Sequence record: NC_054893.1
Direction: 5' to 3' (one strand)
DNA: 49,847 bases
Source of the DNA: Escherichia phage vB_EcoS_W011D
Part shown: in pieces, positions 6,203 to 47,725 of the stretch
How the letters are laid out: each line of letters begins with the position of its first letter
Position numbering within the stretch: position 1 is the stretch's first letter
Position numbers and translations under genes: made by a program
Notes under the pieces: generated by a model
The model's input: only the letters and a program-made list of their open reading frames with translations
Database searches by the model: none
What the model was told of the DNA's origin: nothing

Positions 6203-6227
6203 AAAAAAGGGCTGGAAAGTCCAGCCC
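6203..6227 (-). terminator. Hairpin GGGCTGGA/TCCAGCCC with T-run on the minus strand, between terL and portal (likely attenuator)
   Basis: Perfect 8-bp stem followed by TTTTTTATT on the transcribed strand. Confidence 0.5.
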
Positions 6228-7827: not shown

Positions 7828-8343
7828 TTAGATTTCCTCTAAGATATCGCGCACCGCCTCTTTTACTTCATCAGCCGTTACAGTTTCAACGCTGGCGTTT
7901 GCTTCAACGTTAATGCTTGCTGGCTTATCAACGCCGATATCTTTTGCGATGAATGCAGCGTTAACAAGGTTGTTTGCGGCAAGCTGGAATTTCTGCTCGT
8001 TGATTACGGTGTCGATGAAATCCATCACCTCACTGAATCCAGGCTCTTTGCGCCACTTGAGAGTTACAGACTCTGAAAACCCGCAAAACAGCCGCAAGCC
8101 GTTAAGGGTAAAGATTCGCGGTTTATGGATCTTGGATTCGAACACATCACCCTGAAAGGATGCAGTTTCCGCCGCCTCAATGTGATTCTTTTCCGCCCAT
8201 TCGAAATAGCGGATCGCCAGATCAAAAACCTGCTCCGGCGTTATGGTGTGCGCGTTATTCAGTCGCGCAATGTCGCCATATCGTTTGTTGTATAGTTCTT
8301 TGAAGTTAAGCGCCTTAACAACAGGCTCAATGTTTTTAGCCAT
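7828..8343 (-). CDS. Terminase small subunit
   Basis: Track ORF 7828-8400 trimmed to MAKNIEP start preceded by AAAGGAGGG RBS; immediately upstream of terL. Confidence 0.55.
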   Translation of the reverse strand: MAKNIEPVVKALNFKELYNKRYGDIARLNNAHTITPEQVFDLAIRYFEWAEKNHIEAAETASFQGDVFESKIHKPRIFTLNGLRLFCGFSESVTLKWRKEPGFSEVMDFIDTVINEQKFQLAANNLVNAAFIAKDIGVDKPASINVEANASVETVTADEVKEAVRDILEEI

Positions 8344-8383
8344 AATAATTGCCCTCCTTTGTTGGAGTCCGATTATAACAGGC

Positions 8384-8407
8384 AATAAAAAACCCCGCAA
8401 ATGCGGG
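8384..8407 (-). terminator. Rho-independent terminator (CCCCGCAAATGCGGGG plus T-run) ending the early leftward operon, followed by TGTTATAAT extended -10 upstream of terS
   Basis: Perfect 6-bp GC stem followed by TTTTTTATT on the minus strand; TTGACA upstream and TATAAT downstream of the hairpin. Confidence 0.65.
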
Positions 8408-8415
8408 GTTTGTTG

Positions 8416-10338: not shown

Positions 10339-10395
10339 TTTCAAATCTCCTCGTTTCGCTTCAATGAGGACACTTTAACAAATGTCCTCGCGGAA

Positions 10396-10415
10396 GTTTT
10401 AGCAATTCGTGCTAT
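10396..10415 (-). promoter_or_regulatory. Conserved 20-bp box copy (ATAGCACGAATTGCTAAAAC)
   Basis: Overlaps the TAG stop of the upstream gene; followed by hairpin GAGGACA/TGTCCTC with TAAAGT in the loop region and the conserved leader GCGAAACGAGGAG. Confidence 0.6.
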
Positions 10416-11630: not shown

Positions 11631-11696
11631 CTTGTTTTCTCCTCTGATTGGTTGCTTAACTCAACGAGGAGCACTATAACAAATGCTCCTGATTTA

Positions 11697-11716
11697 GTTT
11701 TAGCAATTCGTGCTAT
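11697..11716 (-). promoter_or_regulatory. Conserved 20-bp box copy (ATAGCACGAATTGCTAAAAC)
   Basis: Followed by hairpin AGGAGCA/TGCTCCT with TATAGT 18 nt after the box. Confidence 0.6.
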
Positions 11717-13820: not shown

Positions 13821-13874
13821 GCTTAGTTCCTCGTTGTTTGGTGTGGGGCTACTATACCGCAACCCCAATTTCGT

Positions 13875-13894
13875 GTTTTAGCAATTCGTGCTAT
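13875..13894 (-). promoter_or_regulatory. Conserved 20-bp box copy (ATAGCACGAATTGCTAAAAC)
   Basis: Box follows the TAA-TAG end of a 27-aa micro-ORF. Confidence 0.55.
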
Positions 13895-15018: not shown

Positions 15019-15073
15019 AGTTATTTCCTCGTTTGTTGTCGATGGGTGTATTATGCCGGATTGCTCCGGCGAT

Positions 15074-15093
15074 GTTTTAACAAAAAGTGCTAT
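15074..15093 (-). promoter_or_regulatory. Conserved 20-bp box copy (ATAGCACTTTTTGTTAAAAC)
   Basis: Box contains the TAG stop of the 28-aa micro-ORF. Confidence 0.55.
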
Positions 15094-15176
15094 TTATTCA
15101 TAGCCCATATAAACCATGCTATATGCGCCACATACACAACGCCAATTGATATGGCAAACACTGCATCAATGTTCAT
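15090..15176 (-). CDS. Micro-ORF, 28-aa hydrophobic peptide (MNIDAVFAISIGVVYVAHIAWFIWAMNK)
   Basis: ATGA overlap with the upstream 49-aa ORF; stop is the TAG of the box; manual translation. Confidence 0.35.
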   Translation of the reverse strand: MNIDAVFAISIGVVYVAHIAWFIWAMNK

Positions 15177-15748: not shown

Positions 15749-15803
15749 TGCTAAATCCTCGTTTCGTTTCGATGGGGTTACTATATCGCAACCCCTGAAT
15801 CGA

Positions 15804-15823
15804 GTTTTAACAAAAAGTGCTAT
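15804..15823 (-). promoter_or_regulatory. Conserved 20-bp box copy (ATAGCACTTTTTGTTAAAAC)
   Basis: Followed by hairpin GGGGTT/AACCCC with TATAGT between the arms, then leader CATCGAAACGAAACGAGGA. Confidence 0.6.
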
Positions 15824-16964: not shown

Positions 16965-16992
16965 ATTATAATCAGGCCGCGCGACGTGTCAA
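16965..16992 (-). promoter_or_regulatory. Consensus sigma70-type early leftward promoter (TTGACA - 16 nt - TATAAT)
   Basis: On the minus strand: TTGACA at about 16987-16992 and TATAAT at about 16965-16970 with a 16-nt spacer; A-rich upstream tract. Confidence 0.6.
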
Positions 16993-17029
16993 TGTTTATT
17001 TTGTTTAACAGACGACTACAACCGCACAA

Positions 17030-17650
17030 AAAGACAAAACAGCGCCTAAGTCATTGAAAACAGGCTGTCTTTTTTTCTGTTAACGCTGTTAACGAGTTGC
17101 GGAGGATTAAATATATATAGATGCGCACACGCCACCCCACCCAGGCGAGCGCATACCCATATATCACTATACATCAATCCAGACACTACCCCATATCCAC
17201 CATAAACAGTGTGAACAATAAAAACAACAAATAGATATATATAAATAAATATACTTTAATTTCAATGTATTATAGAGGATTTATAGTGTTTATTTTGTTT
17301 ACTCAACACCGAAAAACGGCGCGGAAACAATGCGGAGAAATCTGTGAACACCCATGAACAAGAGGAGACAAAGCGCCATGGCGAGAGCGAAAACTTGACA
17401 CTTGCGAACCAGGTTTCACCATTCCCCACACAATCAGTAAAAATTCACACTAATTATTGTCTAAACTGCAACAATCACTATCTTGCATGATGTGCAACGA
17501 TATGCGGCTATCATTTCAGATTTTGCAATGGTGCTGCAAAGCGGTTGTTTTATACACAATCCATCAATAGCACTTTTTGTTAAAAGCGATCGGATCTGAT
17601 TTGCTATAGTTACTTCATCGAAACGGGATACCCAATCAGGAGCAAGCAAG
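17030..17650. other. 620-bp AT-rich non-coding region between the divergent early operons, carrying a ~150-bp element homologous to one in 36530-36990
   Basis: No ORF of 60 aa or more with an RBS; contains ACAAATAGATATATATAAATAAATA and GTGAACAC boxes shared with the second region. Confidence 0.6.
17567..17586 (+). promoter_or_regulatory. Conserved 20-bp box copy (ATAGCACTTTTTGTTAAAAG), first of the rightward early block
   Basis: Followed 18 nt later by TATAGT and the CATCGAAACGGGA leader before the 17652 start. Confidence 0.6.
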
Positions 17651-17946: not shown

Positions 17947-18001
17947 TGGATCGGGGTTAGTTGGCATAATAGCCCCATCAACCAATCAGGAGAATCGAAC
18001 G

Positions 18002-19068: not shown

Positions 19069-19126
19069 GAAATCACGCGCCCTGGTATAATGGGCGCATC
19101 AACAAACGAAACAAGGAAATAAAGCA

Positions 19127-21093: not shown

Positions 21094-21146
21094 AGGGTAG
21101 TATTGTTGCCGTTATAATTAGCGGCAACAAGAAAGGAGATTTTCAG

Positions 21147-24959: not shown

Positions 24960-26081
24960 TTATTTGATCTCCATCATTTCAGGGTAGAACATGAAGCGAC
25001 CAATCTCGCCATATTCCTTATCGTAAACAATCACCGCCGCACGACGACGAGAGCGCCAACCACCGCGCGCCGCGTAAGCGTCTTTTGCTGCCATAGTGGA
25101 ATGTACTTCCACAATCCCCAGGCTCGTTTCTGTTACGGTCTGGTGATGCCAATGGCCTACATGCGCATACATGCTCTTTGAGTTTCCGAAATCCTCCCGC
25201 CAATCTGCCGCGCACATCATCAACAGCGTTTCAGGCTTGCGGATCGTATGTCCATGATGGTAAGCCAGGAACGTTTTACCATATTGCGTGTGATGCACAA
25301 CGCGCGGAGACACATCAACGTTTACGCGAGGCTCGTTTTCGTATGCCGCCGCCATTGCAGCACGTAGCCAGATCATTCCTGATTGGTCGTGATTACCTTC
25401 AATGATTTGCACCTCAACCTCTTTATGCTTTGTCAGCATGAGGCTAATTGCGCGGCGCGTGGCTCGGATTGCAACGTAAACTAATTTTGCGTAACGGCTA
25501 TCTTGATCCAGAACGTGACCGCTTGCAGGTGTTACAGCCTCCAGGCCGTCACTGTGAAGCATATCGCCACCAATCAGGAGCACCGCCTTTTCACTGTTTG
25601 GCGATTTACTAACTGCATAATCGAAAAAGTTATTCATAACCCTTTCCGCCGTTGCGGTGTCGTAGTTCTCGCCGCACTCATGCTTGTGAGCCATTGCCCC
25701 CAGGTGCATATCAAAGATCGGATATAAAGCCAGGCTTTCAGAATAATCAGCGCGTGATTCCGGCTGAGGCTCCAAGCGTGGCACTTCCTCTGCGAAAGCA
25801 TCCATAGCGGCTTGCATGAGAGCCTCTAATTGCTCTTTGTCTTTATTGGTGATAGTCCATCTCATGACTTCCTCACCATTTGCGCGAGTTAAAACAGACT
25901 CGCGCACAACTGCATAACCTGGAGCGCCTTTAATTTCAGTCTCACCAGAACGCGCAAGGCGTGACGCTCGACGCTCGACACTGCGAACATTAAGGCCGAA
26001 CTCCTCTGCGATCTGCTTGTAGGTTTTCCCCTCTTTGCGTGCTTTAATAAACTGCTCGTCGGTGATTTTTCGTACAGCCAT
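24960..26081 (-). CDS. Calcineurin-like metallophosphoesterase with N-terminal helix-turn-helix domain
   Basis: 373 aa; N-terminal HTH-like KTYKQIAEEFGLNVRSVERR; phosphoesterase motifs FDMH, GGDMLHSD and GNHD in order; AAGAGGAA RBS. Confidence 0.6.
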   Translation of the reverse strand: MAVRKITDEQFIKARKEGKTYKQIAEEFGLNVRSVERRASRLARSGETEIKGAPGYAVVRESVLTRANGEEVMRWTITNKDKEQLEALMQAAMDAFAEEVPRLEPQPESRADYSESLALYPIFDMHLGAMAHKHECGENYDTATAERVMNNFFDYAVSKSPNSEKAVLLIGGDMLHSDGLEAVTPASGHVLDQDSRYAKLVYVAIRATRRAISLMLTKHKEVEVQIIEGNHDQSGMIWLRAAMAAAYENEPRVNVDVSPRVVHHTQYGKTFLAYHHGHTIRKPETLLMMCAADWREDFGNSKSMYAHVGHWHHQTVTETSLGIVEVHSTMAAKDAYAARGGWRSRRRAAVIVYDKEYGEIGRFMFYPEMMEIK

Positions 26082-31779: not shown

Positions 31780-31792
31780 TTGCCACTGTTTA

Positions 31793-31816
31793 CCCCGCTA
31801 CGGCGGGGTTTTTTTA
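31793..31816 (+). terminator. Rho-independent terminator after primase
   Basis: CCCCGCTACGGCGGGG followed by TTTTTTTAT. Confidence 0.65.
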
Positions 31817-31865
31817 TGCATTAACAAATGCTATTATCAGGCTTTAACCAACAGGAGAAACAAAG

Positions 31866-33941
31866 ATGGCTATTTATCGCACTGGACAAGCGTCTATGGA
31901 CGCTCAAGGATACATCACCGGATATGATACAAAATGGCGTGAGCAACTTTCATTAATCCGCCCTGGTGCAACAATCTTTTTTATTGATGCTCCTTTTCAA
32001 GCGGCTGTGATTAGTGAGGTTATCAGCGATACACAAATCCGCGCCATCACAACTGGCGGCGCTGAAATTGGGCGAAGCAATTACATCATTTTGCTGCATG
32101 ACTCAATCACGGTTGACGGCCTGGCGCAAGATGTTGCGGAAACTCTGCGCTACTATCAAAGCAAAGAAACTCAGATCGAGGAAGCTATTGAATTTTTCAA
32201 AAACCTTGACCTGAAAACTTTGCAGGATTTGGTTAATCAGATTAAAGGTGATGCAGAAAAAACAGCCGCTGATCGCGCTGCAACTGAACAACTGAAAAAC
32301 GACACTCAACAGATAAAGGATTCTGCTGTCGCTGAAACAAACCAGATCAAGTCCGACACTGACGCAATCAAAAGCCAAACTCAACAGATCAAGGATTCCG
32401 CTGTAAATGAAACGGAAGCCATTAAGCAAGGGGCTTTTGGCGCTCGCGATCAGGCTGAATTGGCGCGTGATGCGGCTGGAAATCATGCCGTTGATGCTAA
32501 TAATGCAAAGGCTGGCGCTGAGACTGCGCGTGATGAAGCGCGTCAATGGGCGCAACAGGTACAGCCTGAAAATCTGTTACATAAAGATCAGAACCTTAAT
32601 GATCTTGCAAACAAAGACCTTGCAAGGGAGGCGTTGAAAGTTGAGGCGGTTAATTCTGTAAAAGGTCAGGCTGCTGGAGATTATAACTCTTTCCGCAACC
32701 CTGCATGGACTTATGAATTGCGGATCGCTAACAATGGCGAATGGCGCGTTGCAAGAAATAGCGATGGATCAACGTCTGCTCTTTCTGTTGGCGCTGGCGG
32801 TACTGGTGCGGAAAACGTAGAAGGCGCAAGGATAAACTTTAGGCTTCAAGGATTTGACACATTGTCAAGTGAGTCAAGGGTATTAAATCCTCAAAATGTA
32901 AGCCAATACATATTTATGAATTCGATTGGTGGTTGGGGTGCTTACGACTCTGAAAATGTAAGAGCAATTCCGCTATCGCTTGGCAATGGTGGAACTGGAG
33001 GTACAGATCAGAATAGCGCTCGCCATAACTTAGGATTATCCATTAATCACTCCCCTGTTTTTGCTGGTATTGATTTGCAAGGTCTTAACGGCACAACGTC
33101 AGGGATCATGGTTTTAAGAAATAGAGATGCTGGAGGCGCTCAAGTTTCATACTCAAGAATTTACCATGAAATTCAGGCTGGAGTTGCCAGAACAACAATA
33201 CAAACAACAAGAGAGGGTGGTGGTACTAACTATTTTCAGATTGATGAAACTGGACTTGTTAATAATGTTAGGGCGATAAGATGTTCTCCGTCAAATGTTG
33301 GTGGCGAGGGATTTACCGTTGGCGTTGTTCCTGGTGGAGGATTTGCAGCCTGGAGAGATCGACCTGCTGGAATGATTGTTGAGCACCCAAGCGATGATGT
33401 TGCGGTTAACGTATTGAAATCTGTCCGTTGGGGCGGAGATTGGGTTATGGGGATTGACGCTGCAAGGTATGGCGCTGGAGGTTGCGAGGTTCATCTAAAT
33501 GTAAGAGGTACTACATATACATTTAATGATGCTGGTTATGCGTCTGCTGTTCAGTGGGTTAACACATCCGATATTCGCCTGAAAGCAAATCTAAAAGAGA
33601 TTGAAAGCGCTAAAGAAAAAGTGAAATCAATAAAAGGTTACACTTATTTCAAGAGGAATAATCTTGATGAAGATGAGCACTCTTTCTACTCTGAGGAAGC
33701 TGGTGTAATAGCTCAAGACGTGCAAAGTGTTTTGCCGGAAGCGGTTTACAAGATTTCAGATTCTGAATATTTAGGTGTTAGCTATGGCGGGGTTACTGCT
33801 CTTTTAGTTAACGCATTCAACGAAATGAGCGATCAGATTGACAAGCAACAAGAGGAGATCGAAACACTGAAATCTGAAATTGCAGATCTTAAAGCGGCGT
33901 TTGAGGCGTTACTCAACAAGCCAACAACGCTGGAAAGTTAA
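31866..33941 (+). CDS. Side tail fibre / receptor-binding protein with C-terminal intramolecular chaperone (peptidase S74-type) domain
   Basis: 691 aa; repeat-rich coiled-coil shaft; C-terminal SDIRLKANLKEI (Ser-Lys dyad motif) followed by a heptad-like coiled coil; AT-rich distal half with AGA/AGG codons. Confidence 0.75.
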   Translation: MAIYRTGQASMDAQGYITGYDTKWREQLSLIRPGATIFFIDAPFQAAVISEVISDTQIRAITTGGAEIGRSNYIILLHDSITVDGLAQDVAETLRYYQSKETQIEEAIEFFKNLDLKTLQDLVNQIKGDAEKTAADRAATEQLKNDTQQIKDSAVAETNQIKSDTDAIKSQTQQIKDSAVNETEAIKQGAFGARDQAELARDAAGNHAVDANNAKAGAETARDEARQWAQQVQPENLLHKDQNLNDLANKDLAREALKVEAVNSVKGQAAGDYNSFRNPAWTYELRIANNGEWRVARNSDGSTSALSVGAGGTGAENVEGARINFRLQGFDTLSSESRVLNPQNVSQYIFMNSIGGWGAYDSENVRAIPLSLGNGGTGGTDQNSARHNLGLSINHSPVFAGIDLQGLNGTTSGIMVLRNRDAGGAQVSYSRIYHEIQAGVARTTIQTTREGGGTNYFQIDETGLVNNVRAIRCSPSNVGGEGFTVGVVPGGGFAAWRDRPAGMIVEHPSDDVAVNVLKSVRWGGDWVMGIDAARYGAGGCEVHLNVRGTTYTFNDAGYASAVQWVNTSDIRLKANLKEIESAKEKVKSIKGYTYFKRNNLDEDEHSFYSEEAGVIAQDVQSVLPEAVYKISDSEYLGVSYGGVTALLVNAFNEMSDQIDKQQEEIETLKSEIADLKAAFEALLNKPTTLES

Positions 33942-36543: not shown

Positions 36544-36990
36544 ATAGGTGTAATGTTATTTTTTGTTTTCTGTTGTTTGTTTTCTATAGTGATAACAAAA
36601 TTGCATCGTAAGTTATTGATTTTGTCTTTGTTGTTTTTGTGTTTACCGTGTTCACAGATTTACGCCGGATATATAGGAATAGATACACATAAACAAAATG
36701 ACCATTACACAAAGTGAAATCACCACAACCAACCAAAAACCAATGAAACATAGAGAACAAAAAGAAACAAATAGATATATATAAATAAATAAACTCTTAT
36801 TTTTCATGTATATAGTAATATTTACTGTATGCTTATTGCTCAATAGCTGATTAAAAAATAAGCTAAATTTACGCCTACGCAAATTCGTGAACACTCTGGA
36901 ACAAAAGAAAACAAACGATAGCACTTTTTGCTAAAACTTCCGGTCGAGATCGTGTATAGTGAGCGCATCTAAACCAAAAGAGGAAAACAA
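36530..36990. other. 460-bp AT-rich non-coding region carrying the second copy of the ~150-bp element shared with 17030-17650
   Basis: No credible ORF; shares ACAAATAGATATATATAAATAAATA and GTGAACAC boxes with the first region, same orientation and spacing. Confidence 0.6.
36917..36936 (+). promoter_or_regulatory. Conserved 20-bp box copy (ATAGCACTTTTTGCTAAAAC) upstream of the Cor-like gene
   Basis: Followed 17 nt later by TGTGTATAGT (extended -10-like). Confidence 0.55.
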
Positions 36991-36991
36991 A

Positions 36992-37219
36992 ATGAAAAAG
37001 ATGATTGCCGTTTTAATTGCAGCCGTTGCCCTGACTGGTTGCGCAAATATGCCGAAACGCGAATGCACCGCAATTTATGAGAATAGCGGAATGGATTATG
37101 AAGTTGCGATCTTTGGCGTTAAGCGAATTAACGATCACACATTCGTGAAGCCTGGCTATCCTTTCAGTTATCATTGGGTTAGCATTGAAAACTTTAAAAA
37201 CGCAGATTGCAGCATTTAA
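36992..37219 (+). CDS. Small lipoprotein, Cor/Llp-like superinfection-exclusion candidate
   Basis: Track ORF trimmed to MKKMIAVL start with AAGAGGAAAA RBS; lipobox LTGC; 75 aa; encoded opposite to and just beyond the tail-fibre genes. Confidence 0.5.
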   Translation: MKKMIAVLIAAVALTGCANMPKRECTAIYENSGMDYEVAIFGVKRINDHTFVKPGYPFSYHWVSIENFKNADCSI

Positions 37220-37225
37220 AACAAA

Positions 37226-37250
37226 GGAGCCGAAAGGCTCCTTTTTTATT
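37226..37250. terminator. Bidirectional terminator GGAGCCGAAAGGCTCC plus T6
   Basis: Identical hairpin to 34210-34225, between convergent genes. Confidence 0.7.
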
Positions 37251-41200: not shown

Positions 41201-41699
41201 TTTTACCGCTTATCGTGTCGCTCAAAATCTCATTGTATGAGCCGCCATCAACAGCCATATCAACGGCATATGTTACGCTTACACCAACGAGATCGCCGTT
41301 GTCCTCTTGCTTTATACCAGTAGGCATAAGGATTTTTATTCTGATCGCAGATAGGTTTTTGTTGGTTACTGCAATCACATATGGAGTGTCTGTTTCAAGA
41401 TTTCGCGATACTGTTATTTCGCTTGAGGTGTCAGTAAATCCCTGGATGTAATCTTGATCTTGAGTGCCTGGCCTGAACTCAGCCGAAACGCCGCTATAGT
41501 TATAAGTGCCATCGTCATTCATAACCGGAACATCATCAAGATACAGGTCACGCAATGAAAACGTTTCGTCGCACTCACCATCGGAAACAGCAAGTAAGAT
41601 CTTGATTTTGTTTATCGAAATCAGGTTATCTTCCATTTCCTTTGGCACATACGGTTTTGATGAACCGCCTTTACTGCCGCTTATCACATTTTTAGCCAT
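38274..41699 (-). CDS. Central tail fibre / host specificity protein (lambda J-like)
   Basis: 1141-aa ORF directly after the tail assembly I-like gene in the conserved M-L-K-I-J order. Confidence 0.75.
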   Translation of the reverse strand: MAKNVISGSKGGSSKPYVPKEMEDNLISINKIKILLAVSDGECDETFSLRDLYLDDVPVMNDDGTYNYSGVSAEFRPGTQDQDYIQGFTDTSSEITVSRNLETDTPYVIAVTNKNLSAIRIKILMPTGIKQEDNGDLVGVSVTYAVDMAVDGGSYNEILSDTISGKTRSGYDRSRRIDLPAFNEQVLFRVRRVTPDSTSSKVTDLIKLQSYAEVVDAKFRYPLTGLVYVEFDSELFPNQIPRIAVKKKWKIINVPSNYDPVLREYHGAWDGTWKKAWSNNPAYILYDLITNQRYGLDQRELGIPLDKWSIYEAGQYCDQMVPDGKGGTEPRYLCDVVIQSQIEAYQLVRDICSIFRGMSFWNGESLSIVVDRPREPSYIFTNDNVVNGDFSYTFASEKSMYTQCNVTFDDEQNMYQQDVEGVFETEAALRFGYNPTSITAIGCTRRSEANRRGRWVLKTNLRSTTVNFATGLEGMIPSIGDVVAIADNFWSSALTLNLSGRVMEVSGLQVFLPFKVDARPGDFIMVNKPDGKPVKRTIANVSADGKTIELNIGFGFDVQPDTVFAIDRTDIALQQYVVTTITKGDNEDEFTYSITAVEYDPNKYDEIDYGVNIDDRPTSIVQPDVMQPPENVAVSSYSRIVQGVSVETMVVSWDKVPYASLYEVQWRKDNSNWLNVPQTANKEIEVEGIYAGVYYVRVRSVSASGSTSPWSGIVTASLTGKVGEPGKPINLTASTNEVFGIRVKWGMPEGTGDTAYIELHQSPDGTAENSSLLTLVPYPQFEYWHSTLPAGKVVWYRVRSVDRIGNVSGWSDFVRGMASDDVSDIIGDILDDIWNTEGGKEIKENAIDSANKIKDQAQSIIQNALANDTDVRIMRKENGKRKAEFRQSIQLIADETEARVTAMTQLKAEFDEEITSEVTRLDQAIATESETRATAIEELKSQIGDDIQGQLTRVEEAIANETEARVSADTALTAKFGDVESALTEKLDSWAGVGGVGAQYAMKLGLTYNGQKYSAGMVMQLSNSPQGLISQILFDAGRFAIMTSSTGGTYTLPFVVENNQVFINSLLVKDGSITNAMIGNFIQSNNYVWNQSGWRLDKNGTFENYGSTPGDGSMKMTNETISVRDANGVLRVQIGRLTGYW

Positions 41700-43089: not shown

Positions 43090-43841
43090 TGGTTTTTCCT
43101 CAACAGTGAAGCTACGGCGCAACCGCCAAAATCTAATGGCTGATCAAATCCGAAACGAATTTTGCAAGCCGTTGCGGTTCCTGCGCAATAGTCCTGCGCC
43201 GGATCTGTTACGGGGTTATTGTCTTTGTCGAACATAGCCGCGCCATTATACCCGCAACCCTTACCGCTCCTGTACCAGCCGCGTTGCGCCCAATAACAAA
43301 CGCTTTGGCTAATGCGTGGCGGTATCATGATCCCATCCATATCATAAGGCGATGTGAGATCGAATCGTGCAACGGATTGATTACAGAAGTTTGGGCGCTC
43401 AATGTAATAAACAAGTTTTCTGTAAGCTCCATCTGCAACGCTTCCGTCTGGTTGCAGGAAGTCAGCCGCCGTAATCCAGATCGTAACCTTAGCTTGCATC
43501 ATGCCGTTGTAGGAGCGAATCATTGCGCTAACCTGGCTATCAAGATTAGATAGCGTTAATTGCGGCTTATCCGCCTTTCCGTTACTGGTAAAGCTGATCC
43601 CGCTAATACCGAAAGGCCGCGCGCCGTAAACCTCACCCTGGAAAACAATGTCTTTTGGCGGTAGCACTCCGGTTTCTCTCGCGATCATTAATTCCTCTGC
43701 GGTGTACTGCAAATTCTCAGCGTGGAACCGATAAACGTTAGCGCCAAACTTTGTGCCGTCAACCTCAACAAGCGTGATAATTTCGCCAGGGTAAAGGCTT
43801 TGTAAGCAGTTGGCAAAGTCTTTGTTTAAGTCTGTAGCCAT
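43086..43841 (-). CDS. Minor tail protein (lambda L-like)
   Basis: Track ORF trimmed to MATDLNKD start with AAGAGGAGAA RBS; C-terminal cysteine cluster; position after the M-like gene. Confidence 0.65.
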   Translation of the reverse strand: MATDLNKDFANCLQSLYPGEIITLVEVDGTKFGANVYRFHAENLQYTAEELMIARETGVLPPKDIVFQGEVYGARPFGISGISFTSNGKADKPQLTLSNLDSQVSAMIRSYNGMMQAKVTIWITAADFLQPDGSVADGAYRKLVYYIERPNFCNQSVARFDLTSPYDMDGIMIPPRISQSVCYWAQRGWYRSGKGCGYNGAAMFDKDNNPVTDPAQDYCAGTATACKIRFGFDQPLDFGGCAVASLLRKNQ

Positions 43842-43909
43842 TTGAATTTCTCCTCTTTTAGTGTGCGCATTATAGCACCAATAAAAAAGCCGCACAAAGG
43901 CGGCTTGTC

Positions 43910-46956: not shown

Positions 46957-46998
46957 GTTTATTCCTCCGATATGAAAAAAGCGCCCGTAGGCGCTTTG

Positions 46999-47645: not shown

Positions 47646-47665
47646 ATAGCATTTTTTGTTAAAAT
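47646..47665 (+). promoter_or_regulatory. Conserved 20-bp box copy (ATAGCATTTTTTGTTAAAAT), plus orientation inside the leftward tail module
   Basis: Followed 18 nt later by TAGAGT; sits between the major tail gene terminator and the chaperone gene, opposite to the gene direction. Confidence 0.5.
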
Positions 47666-47699
47666 CCAGTTTGATTATTTTGGTAGAGTGATTCTACAG

Positions 47700-47725
47700 C
47701 AATAAAAAAAGGGGCGCAATGCCCC
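47700..47725 (-). terminator. Rho-independent terminator after the major tail protein gene
   Basis: GGGGCGCAATGCCCC followed by TTTTTTTATT on the minus strand. Confidence 0.65.

Follow-up and report, generated by a model that had tools for sequence, protein, structure and literature searches.

Intrinsic terminators overlapped by probable sigma-70 promoters upstream of terS and J in the T1-like phage vB_EcoS_W011D

The DNA analysed here is the 49,847-nucleotide sequence of Escherichia phage vB_EcoS_W011D (NC_054893.1), referred to throughout as the window. The elements in question are the regions upstream of terS and of the central fibre gene J, where an earlier note had pointed to terminators followed by -10-like hexamers. 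The window (49.8 kb) represents a T1-like siphovirus of the family Drexlerviridae. Its nearest records are Escherichia phage PaulSarasin (~97% identity in the tail genes) and vB_EcoS_PHB17 (~81–83%), the latter classified in Tempevirinae, Changchunvirus. The structural (late) genes lie on the minus strand, and all elements described below are read on that strand, the coding strand of terS and J, where the motifs were found at the places given in the earlier note. PHROG matches also name the minor tail proteins M and L, the major tail protein V, the tape-measure chaperone G and the major head protein. The genes that frame the two junctions are as follows.

8343–7828, minus strand: terS (PHROG match)
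42377–41778, minus strand: tail assembly protein gene I (PHROG match)
41699–38274, minus strand: central fibre gene J (PHROG match)

Upstream of terS lies a leftward early operon, which has no strong terminator ahead of 8411; the terS terminator is therefore plausibly the end of this operon. The features between the operon and terS are listed here, with distances in nucleotides (nt).

8411–8390, minus strand: hairpin of the terS intrinsic terminator, where the leftward early operon ends (AAACCCCGCATTTGCGGGGTTT)
8400–8395, minus strand: candidate terS -35, TTGCGG (three of six positions), spanning loop and 3′ arm of the hairpin and 17 nt upstream of the -10
8380–8372, minus strand: terS extended -10, a perfect TGnTATAAT (TGTTATAAT)
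8419–8414, minus strand: TTGACA of the earlier note, 36 nt from the -10, judged not functional

Read on the minus strand, the region runs GGA TTGACA ACAAACCCCGCATTTGCGGGGTTTTTTATTGCC TGTTATAAT CGGACTCCAACAAAGGAGGGCAATTATT ATG. The hairpin folds at -15.7 kcal/mol (z = -3.6) around the core CCCCGC-ATTT-GCGGGG at 8408–8393, and the T-run TTTTTTATT directly follows the 3′ side of the stem (after 8390). A Shine–Dalgarno (SD) sequence, AAGGAGGG, is present at 8359–8352, followed by the ATG at 8343; the distance of TGTTATAAT to both is as expected for a promoter. The predicted transcription start is at ~8366–8363, which would give a 5′ untranslated region (5′UTR) of ~22 nt. The earlier note had described a strong terminator lying between TTGACA and TATAAT with a gap of 36 nt, and both the terminator and the gap are correct. 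Its suggestion that TTGACA is the -35-like partner fails: the hexamer overlaps the stop codon of the upstream open reading frame (ORF; TGA, 8418–8416), reads TTAACA in PHB17 (the nearest relative sharing this layout) and is not present in most relatives. Nor does the spacing fit, as subtracting the 22-nt or 16-nt hairpin from 36 nt leaves 14 or 20 nt, not 17. We take this TTGACA to be a chance match.

The second junction, between the tail genes I and J, contains the following features.

41780–41778, minus strand: gene I stop codon
41772–41754, minus strand: hairpin of the intrinsic terminator after tail assembly gene I, CCCCGC-CTTGC-GCGGGG, then TTTTTT
41764–41759, minus strand: candidate J -35, TTGCGC, in the terminator loop and 3′ arm; the 17-nt spacer (41758–41742) consists of the 3′ arm and T-run
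41741–41736, minus strand: J -10, a plain TATAAT preceded by CCG, not extended
41723–41703, minus strand: 21-nt family repeat in degenerate form (AAACAGCACAAAAGGTTAAAA), spanning ~+7 to +27 of the J 5′UTR

The J hairpin folds at -15.3 kcal/mol (z = -1.95), and transcription from this -10 is predicted to start at ~41729. The repeat copy, which is DR8 of phage TLS, also provides an SD-like AAGG ahead of the ATG at 41699. It was considered as the upstream element of a further promoter and rejected, as no -10 is found at the usual 22 nt after it. The terminator, the TATAAT and the degenerate box that the earlier note saw here are thus all present; the site is neither an extended -10, as it had claimed, nor an early-to-late junction, lying as it does between two late tail genes. 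Judged by its sequence, each of the two junctions has an intrinsic terminator with a canonical hairpin and U-tract.

To see whether these arrangements recur, homologous junctions were collected from T1 and from relatives in IMG/VR. Across Drexlerviridae, T1 and TLS among them, the two layouts are conserved, with a -10 that stays TAnAAT and hairpins that vary in sequence. At terS, 26 of 27 hairpin-bearing relatives keep the hairpin, the T-run and a TGnTAnAAT element (TGTTATAAT, TGGTATAAT, TGGTAAAAT or TGGTACAAT). The stem itself differs among them (CCCCGC/GCGGGG, CCCGCC/GGCGGG, GCCCTC/GAGGGC, GCATCC/GGGTGC), each version folding at -11 to -15 kcal/mol, and 25 relatives have a hairpin of other sequence at the same place. 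The stretch between T-run and -10 at terS (TTATGCCTGCAAT; 8381–8389 in the window) is conserved across distant subfamilies, with ~8 nt missing in the window and PHB17. At the I–J junction, ~40 distinct relatives keep the hairpin, T-run, TA(T/C)AAT and then the repeat. The J -10 stands out as a conservation island between variable flanks, with the variants TATAAT, TACAAT and TATACT. The M–L and V–G junctions are conserved likewise. In two relatives (L077 and L079) the downstream -10 at M–L has been lost, and TAAAAT or TAGAAT is found just upstream of the hairpin instead; a -10 is therefore retained beside the hairpin in either geometry.

Stems were compared by folding each sequence separately; a MAFFT alignment of terS regions put some stems one column out of register. 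Mismatched pairs in the stems were G.T in 103 cases and A.C in 9. The much greater tolerance of G.T indicates selection on the fold of the sense-strand RNA, as for terminators, and on the same grounds a DNA cruciform or hairpin promoter was ruled out.

We then collected the late-strand terminators of the relatives, 449 distinct contexts clustered into 95 sequence families, and recorded the position of strong -10 hexamers relative to the stem. Two peaks emerge, one at +12 to +22 past the stem and the other 0–7 nt ahead of it; at most other offsets the hexamers are near zero. A hexamer in one of these positions is present in 50 of the 95 clusters, whereas control windows of the same width yield 12 of 95 (Fisher p = 4e-9). 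The pattern TAnAAT describes about 80% of the hexamers (TATAAT 55, TACAAT 40, TAAAAT 27 and TAGAAT 20 of 177). Position 3 of the -10 is the position best tolerated by sigma-70, and the variation seen at position 3 has this same pattern. The hexamers after the hairpins thus behave, by conservation and position, as selected sigma-70 -10 elements, and are probably the promoters of the terS and J units.

A different reading of the same hexamers is that they are unused, late genes being transcribed from far upstream through leaky terminators that act in attenuation or mRNA stability, with the hexamers kept for another role, such as that of a translation signal or an AT-rich spacer. Genome-wide, TATAAT shows no enrichment (26 occurrences against 23 expected), and generic promoter and terminator scans returned counts at the level of shuffled sequence, as this reading would have it. 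The generic promoter scan demands four of six matches in the -35 and so misses these promoters; the strong hairpins and the positional analysis are the informative measures. The authors of the TLS paper rejected these sites as promoters (PMC11447400), and a -10 is lacking at two late hairpins of the window, one ahead of the tape-measure gene, the other past the ORF that ends at 291; the latter is followed by TTTGTC only, with no T-run. Unused hexamers do not account for the enrichment at two fixed offsets, the conservation islands with sigma-70-like tolerance of substitutions, the TGn kept at terS in all but one relative, the -10 that moved and yet was kept in L077 and L079, or the fixed 17-nt spacing described below. 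We consider this explanation very unlikely.

Other late junctions of the window have similar modules, in two geometries. At terS, V–G, M–L and I–J the -10 comes after the terminator, exactly 12 nt past the stem as the stem is drawn by the scan tool. In four mirror modules, upstream of the portal gene, the gene of a 269-amino-acid (aa) head protein, the major head protein gene and the ORF at 563, the -10 comes 1–2 nt ahead of the stem, and the T-run leads straight into the SD.

43904–43889, minus strand: hairpin of the L (minor tail) module; loop -35 TTGTGC at 43897–43892, 17-nt spacer, extended -10 TGCTATAAT at 43877–43869
47725–47711, minus strand: hairpin of the G module at the V–G junction; loop -35 TTGCGC at 47719–47714, 17-nt spacer, -10 TAGAAT at 47696–47691
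6238–6230, minus strand: extended -10 TGATATAAT of the portal mirror module; 2 nt, hairpin at 6227–6209 (-16.2 kcal/mol), T-run, SD
2526–2521, minus strand: TATAAT of the mirror module of the 269-aa head protein gene (2472–1663); 1 nt, hairpin at 2519–2500 (-15.0 kcal/mol), T-run
1655–1650, minus strand: TTGCAC of the major head mirror module; 16-nt spacer, TGCTATCAT at 1636–1628, 1 nt, hairpin at 1626–1605, TTTT, SD
614–609, minus strand: TAATAT of a weaker mirror module; 1 nt, hairpin at 607–586 (-16.9 kcal/mol), T-run

Across the modules the hairpins fold at -11 to -17 kcal/mol and are followed by T-runs. TGn is present at terS (TGTTATAAT) and L (TGCTATAAT) and is lacking at J (CCGTATAAT) and G (CTGTAGAAT); each of the five TGnTATAAT sites of the window is found on the coding strand, a short way upstream of a gene. 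The mechanical ORF of L begins at a GTG (43895) inside the terminator hairpin, and the true start is likely the ATG at 43841, preceded by AAGAGGAG. In T1 the V–G junction reads GGGGGCTTGCACCCCC, a 17-nt spacer and TAAAAT. Between terL and the portal gene, TATAAT is kept 1–2 nt before the hairpin in the T1 group, in the relatives L011 and L003/4 and in PHB17, while the hairpins differ. The 16-nt promoter spacer of the major head module is a reversed copy of the repeat. The least secure part of the set is TAATAT at 614–609, which matches the -10 at four of six positions and overlaps a stop-codon context. Among late intergenic gaps of at least 40 nt, a hairpin is found in 10 of 10, a T-run in 9 and a -10-like hexamer in one of the two positions in 8.

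In the V–G gap (47646–47696) a plus-strand copy of the repeat is followed at the usual distance by TAGAGT (47684–47689), which stands back to back with the sense TAGAAT in a near-palindrome, GTAGA...TCTAC, and could, from its sequence, be an antisense promoter into the major tail gene. The repeat copy at 1631–1647, also on the plus strand, is similar.

If TTGACA is not the -35 at terS, a better candidate is found inside the terminator. In the four window modules with the -10 after the hairpin, the loop carries TTG exactly 17 nt upstream of the -10 (TTGCGG at terS, TTGCGC at J, TTGTGC at L, TTGCGC at G). Among the relatives, 86 of 177 contexts, from 10–13 of 29 clusters, have TTG with a spacer of 17 nt; when all other spacings from 9 to 29 nt are scored in the same 177 contexts, TTG is found 7 times at 16 nt, 4 times at 18 nt and at most 3 times elsewhere. 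At I–J the 17-nt spacing holds in every row with a loop TTG (37 rows including the window), despite varying lengths of stem and tail (GGGG+13, GGG+14, GGC+14, GG+15). Counted by cluster, a loop TTG is present in 13 of 23 families with the -10 after the hairpin, 3 of 22 mirror families and 13 of 45 terminators lacking a -10. At terS the loop TTG is in the 17-nt register only in the window and PHB17, both of which lack the ~8 nt present in other relatives; it is this deletion that has brought the TTG into register. Promoters in the other relatives would therefore rely on TGn, the feature conserved at terS, and the loop -35 at terS is probably auxiliary.

Taking these observations together, we propose that the terS and J sites are stop-and-restart modules for host RNA polymerase, in which a terminator is overlapped by a sigma-70 promoter. 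We hold this to be likely. The GC-rich hairpin and U-tract would act as a factor-independent stop for the upstream transcript, that of the early operon at terS and of the L-K-I tail unit at J. The overlapping sigma-70 promoter would begin the next unit, its spacer formed by the 3′ arm and T-tract of the terminator and its -10 lying 12–22 nt past the stem. Recognition would depend on the extended -10 with TGn (terS, L), on the TTG placed 17 nt upstream in the loop (J and G, and in this phage also terS and L), or on both. The late region would in this way be divided into separately dosed units: terS–terL; portal and head genes; the major head protein; G/T–tape measure–M; L-K-I; and J. It is from motifs, folding energies and comparison of relatives that we infer termination, initiation, start sites and timing at the modules.

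In the mirror modules, a start ~7 nt past the -10 would land 4–6 nt into the 5′ arm. The predicted transcripts of these promoters fold at 0 to -4.4 kcal/mol, with no fold adjacent to the U-tract, against -11 to -16 kcal/mol for the read-through RNA. Starting inside the 5′ arm would thus leave the promoter immune to its own terminator.

A bolder version holds that ~45 bp have been selected as terminator and sigma-70 promoter at once, that the overlap is itself functional, through polymerase handover or mutual modulation, and that the mirror promoters escape termination. This we regard as possible, though doubtful. If the overlap were functional, it would provide a factor-free setting of late-unit dosage and timing in Drexlerviridae. 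No description of a loop-embedded -35, or of a -10 abutting the hairpin, was found in the literature searched, which did not include the T1 genome paper of 2004.

Several points weigh against the proposal that terminators and sigma-70 promoters are combined at these sites. The loop -35 candidates match the consensus at three of six positions only (TTG), and TTG is also present in 29% of terminator loops without a -10. At terS most relatives carry ~8 nt extra between T-run and -10, which puts the loop TTG out of register. Counts among relatives are not independent, the phages being related, and clustering corrects for this in part. Some mirror -10 matches overlap TAA stop codons in AT-rich sequence, as at 614–609, and could be chance. 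Near-consensus sigma-70 promoters should be active as soon as infection begins, and do not by themselves account for late timing. No 5′/3′ transcript-end mapping for T1-like phages was found in the literature searched. Finally, the TLS authors used a stricter criterion, at most two mismatches against the full consensus; it gave only three promoters in TLS, and they could not confirm the late units proposed for T1 (PMC11447400).

The late timing bears on what the earlier note had made of these sites, namely late promoters that would be regulated either by termination and antitermination or by a factor that dispenses with a -35. The terS and J units are probably transcribed from them. By way of speculation, the lateness of these genes might come from dosage after replication, from release of polymerase after host shut-off, or from a protein that binds the 21-nt repeat. 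No GATC site, which might have allowed Dam control, is present in the terS or J promoter, and no Rfam family reached gathering score anywhere in the window.

A protein that binds the repeat (ATAGCAC...TTGnTAAAA) would be one way in which the promoters could be real and yet true late ones, dependent on or restrained by a phage factor. Most relatives keep the copy of the repeat found at +7 to +27 of the J promoter; the terS -10 and start region of the T1 group are overlapped by another; further copies are found at the portal promoter's -35 position and, in reverse orientation, within the major-head spacer and the G 5′UTR. The sequence ATGCCTGCAAT between the terS T-run and -10 is conserved across distant subfamilies without explanation, and consensus-like promoters alone leave the late timing unaccounted for. 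Yet the position and orientation of the repeat relative to the late -10 differ from site to site, there is no repeat at terS in the window, and T1-like phages are without a known sigma or RNA polymerase gene (PMC11447400). The elements also fit unaided recognition by sigma-70: terS and L have textbook extended -10 elements and all four modules carry the loop TTG. Since sigma-70 ordinarily recognises either promoter form, there is no need for a special factor, including the suggested one that works without a -35. Dependence on a phage factor therefore appears unlikely to us.

Elsewhere in the genome the 21-nt repeat, ATAGCACnnnTTGnTAA, is found at 17 sites in the window, given here by position and strand.

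1631 (plus), 6260 (minus), 10415 (minus), 11716 (minus), 13894 (minus), 15093 (minus), 15823 (minus), 17567 (plus), 17927 (plus)
19049 (plus), 20337 (plus), 21074 (plus), 23242 (plus), 27811 (minus), 30318 (minus), 36918 (plus), 47646 (plus)

Its function is an open question in the TLS paper (PMC11447400). About 13 copies contain TTG(T/C)TA with a -10-like hexamer (CATAAT, TATAGT, TATAAT) downstream at a constant 22 ± 1 nt, a distance 5 nt too great for a normal -35, and a conserved CATC(G/A)A lies 5–6 nt past the -10. In sequence, the repeat looks like part of a distinct promoter class. Between repeat and -10 there is a stable inverted repeat of variable sequence (10376–10399, 11677–11700, 13855–13878, 15784–15807, 17953–17975, 19076–19096, 21103–21130 and similar). 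Twelve of the 17 sites fold at -11 to -18.5 kcal/mol with z ≤ -2.2 (11 of them at ≤ -3.3), a count that includes the portal copy, whose hairpin is the portal terminator. These hairpins end at the -10 or hold it in the loop, as in GCGCCC-tggtataat-GGGCGC at 19076–19096, and contain G.U pairs on the sense strand. Overlap of hairpin and promoter thus seems, from these folds, to be genome-wide rather than confined to the late genes.

The early operon has its own candidate promoter, the sole perfect consensus sigma-70 promoter of the window.

16992–16965, minus strand: TTGACA, 16-nt spacer, TATAAT

Standing at the head of the leftward small-gene block, which runs to the terS terminator, it is probably the immediate-early promoter; together with several internal repeat-associated promoters it seems to drive the operon. 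The adjoining region, 16965–17650, resembles a divergent control region. Outside the morphogenesis genes, a terminator-then-promoter layout is also seen on the plus strand at 31792–31850, where a hairpin (ACCCCGCTACGGCGGGGT) and T-run are followed by TGCTATTAT 19 nt past the stem; TGCTATTAT sits within reversed repeat-like sequence upstream of a 691-aa plus-strand ORF (31866–33941). Several late terminators (37223–37244, 46978–46997 and 43887–43906) score on both strands, with an A-tract upstream and a T-tract downstream. The first of these lies between the end of the late block and a convergent ORF on the plus strand (36959–37219), in the place where T1 has the cor gene.

The number of terminators inside a block of genes that must be expressed together raises the question of antitermination in the manner of lambda Q, in which terminators would block transcription early and be read through late, the -10 elements being secondary. 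Many intrinsic terminators do lie within this block. A restart promoter follows or overlaps most of them, which would be needless under processive antitermination; it suggests that the terminators are meant to work, and the earlier note's suggestion of antitermination control is not borne out. No antiterminator is reported for T1 or TLS, and the window proteins were not searched for one. We judge this mechanism extremely improbable.

Comparison with lambda leads to the same point. The two phages are alike in being siphoviruses with the H-M-L-K-I-J order of tail genes and in using the host polymerase. The late operon of lambda (pR′, tR′, Q) has one late promoter and processive antitermination, whereas here each of many terminators is paired with a promoter-like element. 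A single-late-promoter organisation was thus not found, there being multiple promoter-like elements; a Q-like gene was not searched for. The T4 type of late promoter, with a -10 of TATAAATA and the phage sigma gp55/gp33, is not matched either, the hexamers here being TATAAT, TACAAT, TAAAAT and TAGAAT with TGn or with TTG at 17 nt.

Closer parallels are found among host-type elements. Extended -10 (TGn) promoters recognised by sigma-70 work without a good -35. The terS and L elements carry TGnTATAAT like other members of this class, with the difference that a terminator fills the spacer and -35 region; J and G, in contrast, have no TGn and instead a TTG at 17 nt. Terminators that double as Escherichia coli promoters have been described for the class II terminator of the T7 concatemer junction, which contains a TGn motif (bioRxiv 10.64898/2026.02.12.705533). 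There, too, one short sequence has terminator and sigma-70 extended -10 activity. Terminators of that class are hairpin-less, serve T7 RNA polymerase and were come upon by accident in constructs, whereas the modules described here have hairpins (class I), would serve the host enzyme, and are natural and conserved. Kang et al. (2020) found that E. coli RNA polymerase, after intrinsic termination, diffuses one-dimensionally and reinitiates at a nearby promoter in vitro (PMC6978380). The geometry is similar, with a sense promoter just downstream of the terminator; in the phage, the release point would lie inside the promoter spacer. Such recycling should depend on the distance between terminator and promoter (PMC6978380), and, speculatively and by analogy, it might be a functional reason for the overlap.

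The nearest precedent is T1 itself. The T1 genome paper of 2004 (Roberts, Martin and Kropinski), as it is represented in PMC11447400, described late 'transcriptons', units bounded by rho-independent terminators with their own RpoD-dependent promoters. T1 belongs to the same family as the window phage, shares its gene order and has terminators at the homologous terS, L and J junctions; the window phage belongs to another subfamily, its nearest relatives being PaulSarasin and the Changchunvirus PHB17 (Tempevirinae). The GenBank record of T1 annotates terminators before terS, L and J (that between I and J at 24972–24994) and no promoters there; before the major capsid gene, it has a promoter (15062–15089) directly followed by a terminator (15095–15121). 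In TLS, Table S1 places T28 before terS, T46 before L, T49 before J and DR8 in the J leader, with no promoters at these junctions (PMC11447400). The late gaps of the window, with the hairpins (10/10), T-runs (9/10) and -10 hexamers (8/10) counted above, correspond in silico to transcriptons as defined for T1. The finding is therefore the published T1 organisation encountered again in a new member of the family, to which the comparative analysis adds support. Confirmation by transcript ends would settle the disagreement between the T1 'transcriptons' and the TLS reannotation. It would also provide a rule for annotating late promoters in several hundred Drexlerviridae genomes, whose present records contain terminators and almost no promoters. 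As very compact natural insulator-plus-promoter parts for the host polymerase, the modules may interest phage engineers; in terms of general biology they would be ordinary, host-type terminators and promoters, economically arranged.

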